Below, piece after piece: positions 7,922 to 12,872 of a stretch of DNA of 64,000 nt (the stretch's first letter is position 1; every line of letters starts with the position of its first letter). The translations under genes and the position numbers were made by a program. The notes below the pieces were generated by a model, which saw nothing but the letters and a program-made list of their open reading frames with translations, searched no databases and was not told the origin of the DNA. The stretch is taken from the NCBI RefSeq assembly GCF_988243305.1, contig NZ_OZ547136.1; one strand, given 5' to 3'.

Positions 7922-7954
7922 AAAAAACCCTCTGTAGTAACAGAGGGTTTTGTT
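7922..7954 (+). terminator. Rho-independent terminator downstream of yfgI
   Basis: Stem ccctctg(7928-7934)/cagaggg(7941-7947), 6-nt loop, followed by ttttgtt; an A-run precedes the stem, so it could act bidirectionally. Confidence 0.7.
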
Positions 7955-8210
7955 CATTCATAGTGCAGGGATCAAAATCATTCCCACTCAGCTATCAATG
8001 AGAAAATAAAATATAAATAAATCAATGCCTTGAAACAAACCACTTAGCAGATACCACGAAAAATACCATGTCTCAATAATAGAGCTGTCTACAGGCTGTT
8101 CAGACGAACAATATGGCCGCTCTACTCCTAATAGAGTCCTTAGCTCGGTCACATCACTAATTTCAACATAGATGTGAACAAAATGAGGCATCAACGCACC
8201 TATTCAGTTA

Positions 8211-9725
8211 GTGTATTTGATATCGTATGTGGCAACAAAAAATGGAGTTACAATCTTGAAAGTAAGCGAGTTATCTAGCCAAATTGGCCGACTTTACGGC
8301 TTAAACAACATCAACATAATTATGGGCCGAAACGGTGCGGGAAAAAGTCGTTTCCTTCGTGATATCGAACAAACAATCAGCCAGAACAAGCAGCAATTTT
8401 ATGTCCGGTATGTAAGTCCAGAGCGAGCAGGATCGTTCAAGCGTGATGGCACCGTCCTCACAAATATGAGCGACAACCCCGAATGGCTGAGGCACACTCG
8501 GGCAGTTAATCAGGCAAGCAACTTCAAAGCTGCATCGGCTATGCTATTTCGCGAGGCCGAGACGCTTTACTTACGTCGACTTGCCAATACTCCGGAAATT
8601 CGAACTGATCTAACGCGAAACTTTCAGACAGACCGATTAAGTAAAATTAATCAGCTTCTCACTAACATTTCGCTCGAGATGGGTAATGTCGATTATGAGT
8701 TTCGATCACTTGTAGATGGTCAGATTATTGATCCGGCCCAAATCAGTAGCGGTGAATCGGAAGCGGTTGCATTAGCCGCGGAAATCATCTATTTCTTCGA
8801 CACAATAGATCCGGAGAAATTCAACGTACTCCTCCTCGATGAGCCTGATGTACATCTGCACCCCGACCTCCAAGCTAGACTGGGCAAGCTGATAATCAGT
8901 ATGCTCGACGAATTTAGAACACACGCGAACAGTATTGCCATATGCTTATCCACCCATAGTTCCCCGCTCGTCTGTTCTCTTGCCGCCTCCCCATATGTAT
9001 CAATCGGCACGAAGAGCTTTGCAGTGAATGAAATCTCATTGATACCGGCCAGCGATGAACTTCGAAAGATTGCACCATTCTTCGGGCACCCCCTATCGCT
9101 TTCTCTTAGCGAAGACGCTGCATTAATTTTGGAAGGAGAGGACGACGAACGAGTCTGGCAACAAGCGGCCAGAACATCACAGGGTCGAATAAAAATCTTT
9201 CCCGTACTAGCAGGTAGCGTAGATCAACAGAGTCAACTTGAGGATTTTTGCGTAGACCTCCTTAGTACACTCTATGACAATCCAATCGCCTTTTCCCTTC
9301 GTGATGGCGATGGTGTAATCAACGAGTCGCTTGAACATCGCCTACCTCTTAAACGCTATCGCTTACGATGCTACGCTATCGAAAATGTTCTTTTGACTGA
9401 TTCATGCCTTGCAGTAATGAATGTTACATGGGTGGAATTTGTAGACGCAGCCAAAAAATGGGTTGAGGATAATCAAACACACTCCGACATAGCGTTGATT
9501 GCAGAACTAATGGAATCGAACGACCGATTGCGTCACAAGAAGATCAAGAAAATCCGCCAACTCGTCTGTGCTATTGTTGAGTGTAAAAAACCTTGGGAGG
9601 TAGTAGTTGGACAAGCAATCGGGGCATTGACCAGAGAAGACCTTGAAAACTCGAATATGTTGATCGATTTTCTTGGAGGAGAGATGGTCAGCGACGTCAT
9701 CTTCAGGGACGCAATAAACCCATGA
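8211..9725 (+). CDS. ABC-type ATPase (AAA_21/AAA_15-like) fused to a TOPRIM/DUF4435-like domain; OLD/PARIS/Gabija-like candidate defence nuclease
   Basis: 504-aa ORF. Walker A GRNGAGKS (8325-8348), ABC-signature-like ISSGESEAV (about 8742-8768), Walker B/D-loop VLLLDEPDVHLHPD (about 8836-8877), H-loop LSTHS. C-terminal region has ILEGEDDERVW (about 9125-9157), a DxD motif FSLRDGDGV (about 9291-9317) and YAIENVLL (about 9371-9394), consistent with an OLD-type TOPRIM/DUF4435 fold. The likely true start is the TTG at 8256, which has a GGAG Shine-Dalgarno 8 nt upstream; 8211 is an upstream in-frame GTG with no RBS. The locus is AT-rich. Confidence 0.6.
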   Translation: MYLISYVATKNGVTILKVSELSSQIGRLYGLNNINIIMGRNGAGKSRFLRDIEQTISQNKQQFYVRYVSPERAGSFKRDGTVLTNMSDNPEWLRHTRAVNQASNFKAASAMLFREAETLYLRRLANTPEIRTDLTRNFQTDRLSKINQLLTNISLEMGNVDYEFRSLVDGQIIDPAQISSGESEAVALAAEIIYFFDTIDPEKFNVLLLDEPDVHLHPDLQARLGKLIISMLDEFRTHANSIAICLSTHSSPLVCSLAASPYVSIGTKSFAVNEISLIPASDELRKIAPFFGHPLSLSLSEDAALILEGEDDERVWQQAARTSQGRIKIFPVLAGSVDQQSQLEDFCVDLLSTLYDNPIAFSLRDGDGVINESLEHRLPLKRYRLRCYAIENVLLTDSCLAVMNVTWVEFVDAAKKWVEDNQTHSDIALIAELMESNDRLRHKKIKKIRQLVCAIVECKKPWEVVVGQAIGALTREDLENSNMLIDFLGGEMVSDVIFRDAINP

Positions 9726-9740
9726 GAATGACCTGATACT

Positions 9741-10136
9741 ATGACCACGATTGATCCGCCCTCATGGTATCAGTATTTATTTTATAACCCGCCTCTCAAT
9801 ACACCAAGAGATTGCGGTAAAGTGGAGCAGCATGATTACCAGCTTTATCTGGCGATAAATGATATTGAGCATACGAAAACGAAAGCAATGTCATCTAAGA
9901 CCAATAGTATCTGCGAGCAGTTCCATAAAACGATACTGAACGAGTTTTATCAGGTGACGTTCCGCAAAAAGTTATATGATGATCTTGAAGCATTACAATC
10001 GGTTCTTGATGAATGGCGGGTTCACTATAATAATGAGCGAACCCATCAGGGAAAAATGTGCAGTGGCCGAACGCCGATGGAAACGTTACTTGATGGAAAG
10101 CACATCTGGGATGAGAAAAACTTAAGCCAGATGTAA
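9741..10136 (+). pseudogene. truncated DDE (rve/integrase-core) transposase remnant, 3' end only
   Basis: 131-aa ORF whose C-terminal ~85 aa (KTNSICEQFHKTILNEF...YNNERTHQG...GRTPME) match the C-terminal part of integrase-core DDE transposases (IS481/IS3-like), including the catalytic-E region. The N-terminal DD part is absent and the first ~50 aa look unrelated. It begins 16 bp after the ATPase stop. Confidence 0.55.
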
Positions 10137-10229
10137 TCTGACAGATACCTTTATAAATAGCCGGTAATTGTCAGATCAGGTCTGATCTTATACAACTTAA
10201 CTGTGTTATGAGCAATACTGAGGATAGAT

Positions 10230-11000
10230 ATGGAACCAGAGAAATTTGCTGAAACTGCAATAGGATTTACCAAAAGCCCTCTTGGTATCATTGCACTCTT
10301 TATTGTTCTCGTTTATGGATTTGCCTCTTTCGTCGTTGGCTTTGGTAATGGCTTATCAGAGCATATAGCTCCCCTTATTTATTTCATGGTTTTCTTTCCT
10401 GTCATTGTGTTTCTTGGCTTTCTCTGGCTTGTTGCGAAACATCATAATAAGCTTTACGGGCCGTCAGATTTCAAAGATGAAAATAATTTTTTAAGAGCGC
10501 AAATAGCTACAGCAGCATCATTGACCGCCGCCACAGCAAAACAGCCTGAAAATAGTGCAGGGGTCACTGAAAGCCAACTGCGAAAAATCGTCAACGTTGT
10601 ATCCAATGCAAAACGGCAGAGTAAGCATGAAAAATGGCGAAATCGTATTTTATGGGTGGATGATCGACCAGAAAATAATGTTTACGAAAGACAGGCATTT
10701 GAGGCACAGGGAATAGAGTTCGCTTTAGCTCTTTCAACTGACGAAGCCTTAGAATTGTTAAAAACAAATAAGTTTGCAGCTATTATTTCGGATATGGATC
10801 GCAAAGAAGGGGCGCAAGAAGGTTATGTCTTACTAGAAAGATTACGCGCAATGGGAGACAAAACTCCTTTTATGATCTATGCGTCCTCAGATCTACCAGA
10901 GCACAAGAAAATGGCGAGAGAAAGAGGTGCAATTGGCTCCACTAATCGAGCAGAAGAACTCTTTCAAATTGTCATGGGTGCGATTACCAATGGCTCATAA
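10230..11000 (+). CDS. membrane-anchored protein with C-terminal CheY-like receiver (REC)-like domain
   Basis: 256-aa ORF with SD GAGGA upstream. Two predicted TM helices (IIALFIVLVYGFASFVVGF; LIYFMVFFPVIVFLGFLWLV). The C-terminal ~120 aa follow a (beta-alpha)5 pattern with receiver-like acidic positions: ILWVDD at the end of beta1, AIISDMD at the end of beta3, FMIYASS at the end of beta4. The beta5 lysine is not obvious. Confidence 0.45.
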   Translation: MEPEKFAETAIGFTKSPLGIIALFIVLVYGFASFVVGFGNGLSEHIAPLIYFMVFFPVIVFLGFLWLVAKHHNKLYGPSDFKDENNFLRAQIATAASLTAATAKQPENSAGVTESQLRKIVNVVSNAKRQSKHEKWRNRILWVDDRPENNVYERQAFEAQGIEFALALSTDEALELLKTNKFAAIISDMDRKEGAQEGYVLLERLRAMGDKTPFMIYASSDLPEHKKMARERGAIGSTNRAEELFQIVMGAITNGS

Positions 11001-11214
11001 CAAAGCCATTAAATTCGCCCCCTACGGCTACGGTTGCCGGGCGCTCACAACGGCCAGTATCTCATTTGTCGATTTGATCGATCTCATTGTAAGCACTTCC
11101 GGCTAGACTATTTTGGAATACCGCCATTTTGTTGGTAATGGCTTTTATCTTTAGGCCATAGCCGATGTTATAGAGTTACGGCCTTAAAAATAGAAGTCAT
11201 ACACTCAATGAAAA

Positions 11215-11250
11215 ACCAATAAAAAATGCCAGTCAGCAAACTGACTGGCA
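11215..11250 (-). terminator. Rho-independent terminator downstream of guaA
   Basis: Inverted repeat tgccagtcag(11227-11236)/ctgactggca(11241-11250) with loop caaa; on the minus strand it is followed by a U-run (complement of the A-run 11211-11226). Confidence 0.7.
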
Positions 11251-11294
11251 TTAAAGTTAGTTGGAAAGGCTTAATTTACTATTTATAGCCAGTC

Positions 11295-12872
11295 CTACTC
11301 CCACTCAATGGTAGCTGGCGGCTTGCCGCTGATGTCATACACCACGCGGGAAATACCGTTCACTTCATTGATAATGCGGTTGGAAACGCGACCGAGGAAG
11401 TCATACGGCAGGTGCGCCCAGTGTGCGGTCATAAAGTCGATGGTTTCGACAGCACGCAGAGAAACAACCCAGTCATACTTACGACCATCGCCCATTACGC
11501 CAACAGAACGTACTGGCAGGAAGACGGTGAACGCCTGGCTGACTTTGTCGTACAGGTCCGCTTTACGCAGTTCTTCAATGAAGATGGCGTCAGCACGGCG
11601 CAGCAGGTCACAGTACTCTTTCTTCACTTCACCCAGAACACGAACGCCAAGGCCTGGTCCCGGGAACGGGTGACGGTACAGCATGTCGTACGGCAGGCCC
11701 AGCTCCAGACCAATCTTACGCACTTCGTCTTTGAACAGCTCTTTCAGCGGTTCAACCAGGCCCATCTTCATCTCTTTCGGCAGGCCGCCCACGTTGTGGT
11801 GAGATTTGATGACGTGTGCTTTACCGGTTGCAGAAGCAGCAGATTCGATAACGTCAGGGTAGATAGTGCCCTGCGCCAGCCACTTCACGTCTTCCAGTTT
11901 CAGCGCTTCTTCATCGAATACTTCAACGAAAACGCGCCCGATGATTTTACGTTTTGCTTCCGGATCATTTTCGCCAGCCAGCGCTGACAAGAAGCGATCT
12001 TCTGCCGGTACATGAACAATGTTCAGACCAAAGTGATCGCCAAACATATCCAGAACCTGCTCTGCTTCGTTGAGACGCAGCAGGCCGTTGTCGACGAATA
12101 CGCAAGTCAGGTTTTTACCGATAGCGCGGTGCAGCAGCATTGCAGTCACGGAGGAATCCACGCCACCAGAGAGGCCGAGGATCACTTTATCGTCGCCTAC
12201 CTGCTCGCGGATGCGAGCTACGGCGTCGTCGATAATTTTCGCTGGCGTCCACAGGGCTTCACACTGGCAGATATCACGCACAAAACGCTCCAGCATGCGC
12301 ATACCCTGGCGGGTGTGAGTCACTTCCGGATGGAACTGTACACCATAGAAGCGTTTTTCTTCGTTAGCCATAATGGCAAACGGGCAGCTTTCGGTGCTGG
12401 CTACGGTGACGAAGTCGGACGGGATAGCGGTAACTTTATCGCCGTGGCTCATCCAGACATCGAGCAGCGGTTTACCGTCTGCAGTCAGCGCATCTTCGAT
12501 ACCGCGAACCAGTGCGCTGTCGTTTACGACTTCAACCTGCGCGTAGCCAAATTCACGTTCGTTAGAGGCTTCAACGTGACCGCCCAACTGCATTGCCATG
12601 GTCTGCATGCCATAGCAAACGCCGAATACCGGTACGCCTGCTTCAAAGACATACTGCGGCGCACGCGGGCTGTTTTCTTCGGTGGTGCTTTCCGGGCCGC
12701 CGGAAAGAATAATGCCGCTTGGGTTGAAGTCACGAATTTGTGCTTCTGTCACATCCCACGCCCACAGTTCGCAGTAAACACCCAGTTCACGCACGCGGCG
12801 CGCAACCAGTTGAGTGTACTGAGAACCGAAGTCCAGAATGAGGATGCGATGCTTATGAATGTTTTCCGTCAT
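11295..12872 (-). CDS. guaA: GMP synthase (glutamine-hydrolysing)
   Basis: 525-aa ORF. N-terminus [36 protein letters not shown], class-I glutamine amidotransferase plus ATP-pyrophosphatase domain (SGGVDSSV), C-terminal PATIEWE. Confidence 0.97.

Follow-up and report, generated by a model that had tools for sequence, protein, structure and literature searches.

The 131-aa open reading frame (ORF) found between an ATPase gene and a gene for a receiver-domain protein (REC) is a non-functional remnant, the last 384 bp of an insertion sequence (IS) of the IS481 family, probably marking a deletion scar between two unrelated one-gene mobile units, both devoid of an integrase, placed in tandem in the att site of guaA. 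The window, meaning the whole stretch of 64,000 nucleotides analysed, carries the two genes and the fragment in a small islet whose components are listed in Table 1. Unit 1 comprises the ATPase gene and unit 2 the REC gene together with the IS that precedes it.

Table 1. Features of the islet and its borders (positions in the window)
Feature	Position	Strand	Remarks
Displaced original 3' end of guaA	7978-7990	-	Last four codons and stop, 13 nt; from comparison with K-12
Left att core TCCCACTCA	7982-7990		Within the displaced guaA end; from comparison with K-12 and core search
Non-coding left arm of unit 1	7991-8255		Conserved, with indels, beside att in relatives
ATPase gene, full length	8256-9725	+	489 aa; ABC-type ATPase; PGAP start (mechanical ORF start 8211)
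Intrinsic terminator of the ATPase gene	9733-9785	+	12-bp stem (9733-9744 / 9762-9773), then T-rich tract
ORF as reported	9741-10136	+	131 aa; chimera of 23 non-transposase codons, 107 transposase codons and 1 junction codon
Truncated tail of unit 1	9786-9810		Deletion junction between 9810 and 9811
IS481-family remnant	9811-10194	+	Positions 818-1201 of a 1201-bp element; last 32%, 384 bp
Transposase pseudogene fragment	9813-10136	+	Residues 240-346 and stop; E of DDE kept, both D and HTH lost
Right terminal inverted repeat TGTCAGATCAGGTCTGATCTTATACA	10169-10194	+	Intact, 26 nt; identified from inverted-repeat pairs in full copies
Leader of the REC gene	10195-10229	+	10205-10229 conserved in REC loci without IS
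REC gene, full length	10230-11000	+	256-aa membrane protein with receiver domain (Pfam Response_reg)
Right arm of unit 2	11001-11298		Terminator-like hairpins 11123-11142 (+) and 11225-11252 (-); gives guaA its last codon and stop
Right att core TCCCACTCA	11299-11307		Inside the guaA 3' end
guaA	11295-12872	-

The gene order around the islet is that of the E. coli chromosome, ppx-pdeF-yfgG-yfgH-yfgI on one side and guaA-guaB-xseA on the other, and the spacing between yfgI and guaA is 3411 bp in the window vs 92 bp in K-12. Alignment with K-12 delimited a 3308-bp insert (7991-11298) having the 9-bp direct repeat TCCCACTCA on both sides; read on the opposite strand, this repeat is the core GAGTGGGA of the GIsul2 att site. 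guaA takes a new last codon and stop from the right end of the insert, GAG TAG replacing GAA TGA (stop at 11295-11297). A repeat in the 3' end and the replacement of guaA codons are typical of elements whose integration is site-specific and targets gene 3' ends. The last-codon change is synonymous, the stop is TAG for TGA, a terminator-like hairpin is gained (11225-11252), and the original guaA terminator (7924-7951) now lies 3.3 kb from the gene. The annotated genes of the islet are the ATPase, the transposase fragment and REC only. No integrase or relaxase was identified in it by RefSeq annotation and Pfam, and int, alpA, repA, trbJ and trbL are all absent from 7991-11298, as are rep and trb genes. 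The whole islet is carried by 27 of 5426 complete E. coli genomes, at identities of at least 99.3%.

The first-pass annotation had described the ORF as the C-terminal part of an rve-type DDE transposase lacking its DD portion and starting 16 nt after the ATPase stop (9725), and both points hold: the ORF (9741-10136, plus strand, 131 aa) matches Pfam rve_3 (E 5.5e-10), and from residue 25 to residue 131 it shares 91% identity with residues 240-346 of a complete transposase of 346 aa (BLASTP E 3e-72; also tblastn). That full-length relative passes the NCBIfam model NF033577 (288 bits, cut-off 224), and the fragment covers profile positions 206-283 of 284 (E 6e-23); the comparison with full-length IS481-family transposases that had been proposed thus confirmed the assignment, which NCBIfam gives at family level only. 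The catalytic residues of the full-length protein are D170, D234 and E274. The fragment begins at residue 240, so only the catalytic E is retained (in the motif ICEQFHK), and D170, D234 and the HTH_29 domain (residues 11-74) are missing.

At the DNA level the remnant is 93.75% identical to an intact copy in the Salmonella plasmid CP054717 and 88.6% to one in E. coli CP053731. The IS DNA extends 58 bp beyond the ORF stop, up to the right inverted repeat at 10169-10194, the sole match to this repeat in the window, with none expected by chance. Neither a left inverted repeat nor further IS DNA was found across the 64-kb window. Intact copies present 26-nt terminal inverted repeats and 7-bp target duplications (CCTGTGT or GCTAAAA); for the right flank of the remnant, ACTTAAC, no copy was seen by eye in 9800-9810, at the left junction, and the window lacks the left end of the IS, where a duplication partner would be expected. 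The suggested search for repeats and duplications accordingly yielded one intact repeat, the right one, and neither a left repeat nor a duplication partner. Of the features that characterise the IS481 family, the homologous transposase is represented, and a complete transposase, a pair of repeats and a target duplication are wanting. RefSeq labels 9813-10136 as 'integrase core domain-containing protein; incomplete; missing N-terminus', and the remnant is an ordinary IS481-family pseudogene, already flagged there.

The coordinates of the ORF stand, but those of the mobile DNA do not coincide with them: the IS-derived stretch is 9811-10194 rather than 9741-10136, and codons 1-23 (9741-9810) belong to the 3' flank of the ATPase gene and are not transposase-derived. 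This flank contains the terminator of the ATPase gene, with a fold energy of -18.9 kcal/mol (z -4.3; none of 200 shuffles as good), and the same hairpin is present in K. aerogenes and P. aeruginosa. The ATG of the ORF (9741) sits in the 5' arm of the hairpin, so the 131-aa ORF is a chance fusion of terminator and transposase tail. No Shine-Dalgarno-like sequence precedes this ATG. In the orthologous copy of K. aerogenes the frame used in the window is broken by three stops and one frameshift, and that of Kluyvera presents a 12-bp deletion and one stop. In the metagenome contig L040, 339 of the 384 IS bases aligned, a shortfall that can be read as a deletion of about 45 bp. Across three lineages the fragment diverges at 9.5-16.4% of its sites, and REC at 7.4-9.4% of third codon positions and 1.4-5.5% of first and second positions. 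Judged by these alignments, the fragment, diverging at least as much as silent sites, is a pseudogene in neutral decay. It yields no working protein, and its sole plausible leftover role is that of spacer or upstream sequence for REC.

The ATPase gene was supposed to have possibly lost its 3' end, which proved not to be the case: the protein has 489 aa vs 484-491 aa in most homologs among the matches listed (coverage about 100%), and the terminator of the gene is still present. An ATPase domain is evident (Pfam AAA_15/AAA_21). The best PADLOC match was PDC-M01A (1e-17), along with AriA and AriAB, and no model matched strongly. The C-terminal half contains two invariant motifs, E293/E295/D296/D297 (EGEDD) and D350-G-D352 (DGD). 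The best fold matches were the OLD nuclease of retron Eco8, GajA and the Thermus OLD nuclease, with TM-scores of only 0.30-0.38, and a Pfam DUF4435 match was faint (E 0.088). From motifs and predicted fold, this half looks like a TOPRIM-like domain resembling those of OLD-family nucleases, and the ATPase may be a candidate one-gene defence protein. It is 65-94% identical across alpha- and gammaproteobacteria, being mostly a solo gene.

Loci containing the ATPase without REC were identified in Enterobacter, Serratia, Pseudomonas, Mesorhizobium and Sphingobium, the last two having it as a solo gene. At guaA it is followed by a 302-aa protein in E. bugandensis, by a HipA-like protein and others in Serratia and by a Trb-type conjugative element in P. 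aeruginosa, and no consistent partner gene was found across the ATPase loci compared. A second att core is located 167-183 bp past the ATPase stop in these three species: ctcacTCCCACTCgatcatcaat in P. aeruginosa, perfect (L005 9640-9647); ctcatTTCCACTCgat in Serratia marcescens, with one mismatch (L032 9638-9645); and TCCCACCC in E. bugandensis, also with one mismatch (L008 9638-9645). Enclosed by two att cores and without an integrase, the ATPase fits the published definition of a CIME (PMC5704250). Beyond the second core a different element follows in each of P. aeruginosa, Serratia marcescens and E. bugandensis, forming tandem arrays at guaA, and no integrase is visible in the Enterobacterales examples of these arrays. 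The left arm of unit 1 is 81% identical in K. aerogenes, 73% in E. bugandensis and 67% in P. aeruginosa, and its first 85 bp or so are similar to the left end of a different element, in L015.

The REC gene is also complete, most homologs among the matches listed having 255-258 aa (coverage 100%), and REC loci lacking the ATPase were identified in Kluyvera, Dickeya, Acidithiobacillus and in Chlorobium and Sulfuritalea MAGs. The protein, annotated as 'response regulator', is unusually well conserved, with 85-88% amino acid identity in Acidithiobacillus and in the Chlorobium and Sulfuritalea MAGs; it is an orphan without output domain and without a constant neighbour. No conserved partner gene was identified for it, the neighbours being different in every distant locus compared. 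REC loci without the IS share with the window just 10205-11003. Because these loci keep 10205-10229, the IS end can be placed about 10 bp upstream of the native REC leader, its distance to the REC start codon being about 35 bp. The right arm of unit 2 is common to Klebsiella, Kluyvera, Rosenbergiella and the contig L041. A further decayed REC unit, lacking the first 44 REC codons, was identified at guaA in Rosenbergiella nectarea (L025 10000-11027). A 38-bp piece, 100% identical to window 10329-10366, lies 2.3 kb upstream of this REC (L025 7661-7698), and unrelated genes separate it from the REC gene.

The insertion of an IS followed by a deletion, as originally suggested, is supported by the absence of a left repeat, of any other IS piece and of an ACTTAAC partner, and by the loss of some 82-93 bp of the unit tail. 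The homology between the window and the Serratia locus L032 (92%) extends from att (7975) to exactly 9811. The ATPase units of Serratia and P. aeruginosa continue for 82-93 bp more past window 9799-9811 and end at the second att core, and the unit of the window ends 85 bp after the ATPase stop and abuts IS position 818. From this alignment the DNA lost would include about 82 bp of the tail of unit 1, a middle att, the part of unit 2 that preceded the IS, and IS bases 1-817. It is from the relatives only that a middle att would be deduced. A candidate at 9789-9800 (CCGCCTCTCAAT) was rejected, having three mismatches and a background frequency of about one per 1.3 kb (50 found, 43 expected), and also because the relatives put the real one 82-93 bp further, in the deleted DNA.

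The same junction at IS position 818 was identified in 27 of 5426 E. coli genomes, in K. pneumoniae, in K. aerogenes and in six metagenome contigs, the islet being 98.6% identical in K. pneumoniae and 91.5% in K. aerogenes. In the K. pneumoniae copies an IS3-family element is inserted inside the ATPase gene (L011 4408-5664; window about 8894-8897), splitting it into ORFs of 214 and 274 aa; the flanks of the insertion overlap by 4 bp. Two other forms of the IS were found. In Kluyvera (L014 6575) it starts at position 799, directly abutting a chromosomal terminator and without a left att, and in the contig L041 (position 121) it starts at position 720 or earlier, abutting unrelated DNA, the contig ending 120 bp further. 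These other truncation points indicate that the IS was once longer and that more than one deletion ended inside it. The three points (position 720 or earlier, 799 and 818) cluster within about 100 bp, each with a different left partner, and such clustering does not fit well with independent random deletions. The IS is absent upstream of REC from the six loci recovered by the REC-protein search in genome contigs, and the metagenome search for the IS-REC joint gave no full IS, all six contigs being truncated at position 818. The comparison with other genomes that had been recommended thus revealed the same junction or other truncations, and in neither genome contigs nor metagenomes a relative with a complete IS beside REC or with an intact unit 2. 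The original content of the locus and the order of events are for this reason reconstructed and not observed.

The reconstruction would start with unit 1 (the OLD-like ATPase between two att sites) and unit 2 (REC preceded by the inserted IS) being brought together by successive site-specific integrations at guaA. A single deletion would then have removed the segment from the tail of unit 1 to IS base 817, including the middle att and the left part of unit 2, where recombination genes may have been located. That would leave one 3.3-kb composite whose only att sites are the outer two. It would since have moved between E. coli and Klebsiella by site-specific recombination with an integrase provided in trans.

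Such movement is suggested by the comparison with K. pneumoniae, where the islet is 98.6% identical and guaA about 87%, the drop beginning exactly at the att core. From 11299 on, the guaA of the window is E. coli-like (0-4 differences per 100 bp vs K-12), and at the left junction the sequence is species-specific outside the att core and shared inside. Import by homologous recombination was considered and ruled out by the identity drop at the att core and by the E. coli-like guaA from 11299. These sharp borders at att point to site-specific insertion of an already fused composite, not to import through flanking homology, and the islet was probably moved as one unit after the fusion. No integrase was identified in the Enterobacterales guaA islets examined; since the islet lacks one, the enzyme must come in trans, and we infer a trans-acting integrase for its movement.

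Relatives lose homology to the window at att, beyond which they carry prophage lysis genes (L037 and L039) or a relaxase-bearing element (L015), and the presence of these elements means that the guaA site is still in use. In the two metagenome contigs (L037 3095-5208 and L039 6942-8777) the DNA past the att core (window 11309) contains a phage lysis cassette, with spanin-like, lysozyme-like and holin-like ORFs, as seen from their translations only. A prophage appears to lie in tandem with the islet at the same guaA site.

The idea of a decayed larger system, advanced together with that of a lost intervening gene, was correct for a tandem pair of mobile units that has decayed and incorrect for a functional system of several genes. 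That the ATPase, a lost middle gene and REC formed one multi-gene system whose middle was destroyed by the IS is very improbable. In its favour, ATPase and REC are neighbours on one strand and occur together in 27 of 27 E. coli genomes, and ATPases of this class often act with partner effectors. Outside E. coli and Klebsiella, however, the two genes are unlinked, each occurring without the other, and the loss of an intervening gene of a common system is not supported. In three species, moreover, the ATPase unit ends with a terminator of its own and an att site, the ATPase has a TOPRIM-like domain of its own and occurs solo, and the neighbours of REC vary. Even less credible is a working truncated derivative of the transposase encoded by the 131-aa ORF, for example a transposition inhibitor or a domesticated partner of ATPase and REC. 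The frame is open in E. coli and K. pneumoniae, with a gene call on one K. pneumoniae contig, and the catalytic E is retained, but the frame is broken in K. aerogenes (three stops and a frameshift) and in Kluyvera (a stop and a 12-bp deletion) and diverges at a neutral or faster rate. Its first 23 codons come from the terminator hairpin with no Shine-Dalgarno-like sequence, both D residues and the HTH are absent, and the best-matching E. coli genome has no second place matching this IS 3' end.

A somewhat better case, although still unlikely, can be made for retention of the fragment as promoter or 5' untranslated region of REC, a gene that the IS cut off from its native upstream DNA. The IS end is 35 bp away from the REC start and some 10 bp away from the conserved leader, REC loci free of the IS share nothing further upstream, read-through into REC is unlikely given the terminator of the ATPase gene, all three truncated forms of the IS keep at least its last 384 bp, and a weak sigma-70-like site is found at 10006-10034. 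Promoter-like sites in the islet are nevertheless no commoner than in shuffled sequence (4 found vs 6.7 expected), no good -35/-10 pair was seen by eye in 10100-10229, and in three independent lineages the IS end and leader do not significantly exceed the remainder of the fragment in conservation (Fisher p 0.25-1). The scar left by a deletion between two mobile units is the preferred explanation.

The fragment matters little by itself, its value being that of a dated scar and a marker of the history of the islet. From the scar the islet can be recognised as two independent mobile units fused together rather than a broken operon, so analyses should not take ATPase and REC as partners. In Enterobacterales the 3' end of guaA is a place where integrase-less units accumulate and are exchanged between species, which is relevant to the spread of small defence-like genes without mobility genes of their own.

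Compared with known systems, the remnant has the same right repeat and the same C-terminus as the intact IS481-family copies of CP054717 and CP053731, with 88-94% DNA identity over the last 384 bp, and differs from them in that the window has 32% of the element, without left repeat, HTH, D residues or target duplication. The gene ylbG of E. coli K-12 is likewise left over from a related IS481-family element, with 89% identity to the full copy, but it represents the HTH part at the other end (positions 1-463) and is found at another locus. Of 5426 E. coli genomes, 3597 have matches to some part of the full IS, ylbG accounting for many of the matches.

As to the integration site, GIsul2 integrates in the guaA 3' end with the att core GAGTGGGA, and an internal third att allows its integrase-less sub-unit CR2-sul2 to move (PMC9376610). 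PIMEs are a large family of integrative mobilizable elements at guaA with defence genes as cargo (bioRxiv 10.64898/2026.01.12.698999). The islet has the same target and the same core GAGTGGGA (other strand, TCCCACTC), and differs in having no int, alpA, rep or trb genes, the likeness being drawn from target and core. The pattern of identity with K. pneumoniae suggests that the islet could be mobilized by the integrase of a related element. More tentatively, the guaA att could be regarded as a cassette array in which one-gene, att-flanked, integrase-less units pile up and cross genera by means of GIsul2/PIME-type integrases. The units in this case would be the OLD-like ATPase-nuclease and the orphan membrane receiver protein, welded by the IS-truncating deletion, with loss of the internal att, into one 3.3-kb unit still able to move between E. 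coli and Klebsiella.

In organisation the islet also parallels CIMEs and their tandem accretion at att sites (Pavlovic 2004; Bellanger 2011; both as summarised in a review, PMC5704250). CIMEs are recognised by conserved attL and attR and by the absence of integration and transfer genes, and the islet presents both traits: att repeats flank it within a conserved gene's 3' end, it has no integration or transfer genes, and in relatives it has tandem neighbours of several kinds. The cases described are mostly from Firmicutes and derive from identifiable ICEs, whereas the units of the islet carry one cargo gene each. The islet further differs in that its middle att was deleted and its two units fused, and this fusion of two one-gene att-bounded units through the loss of an internal att is mildly novel.
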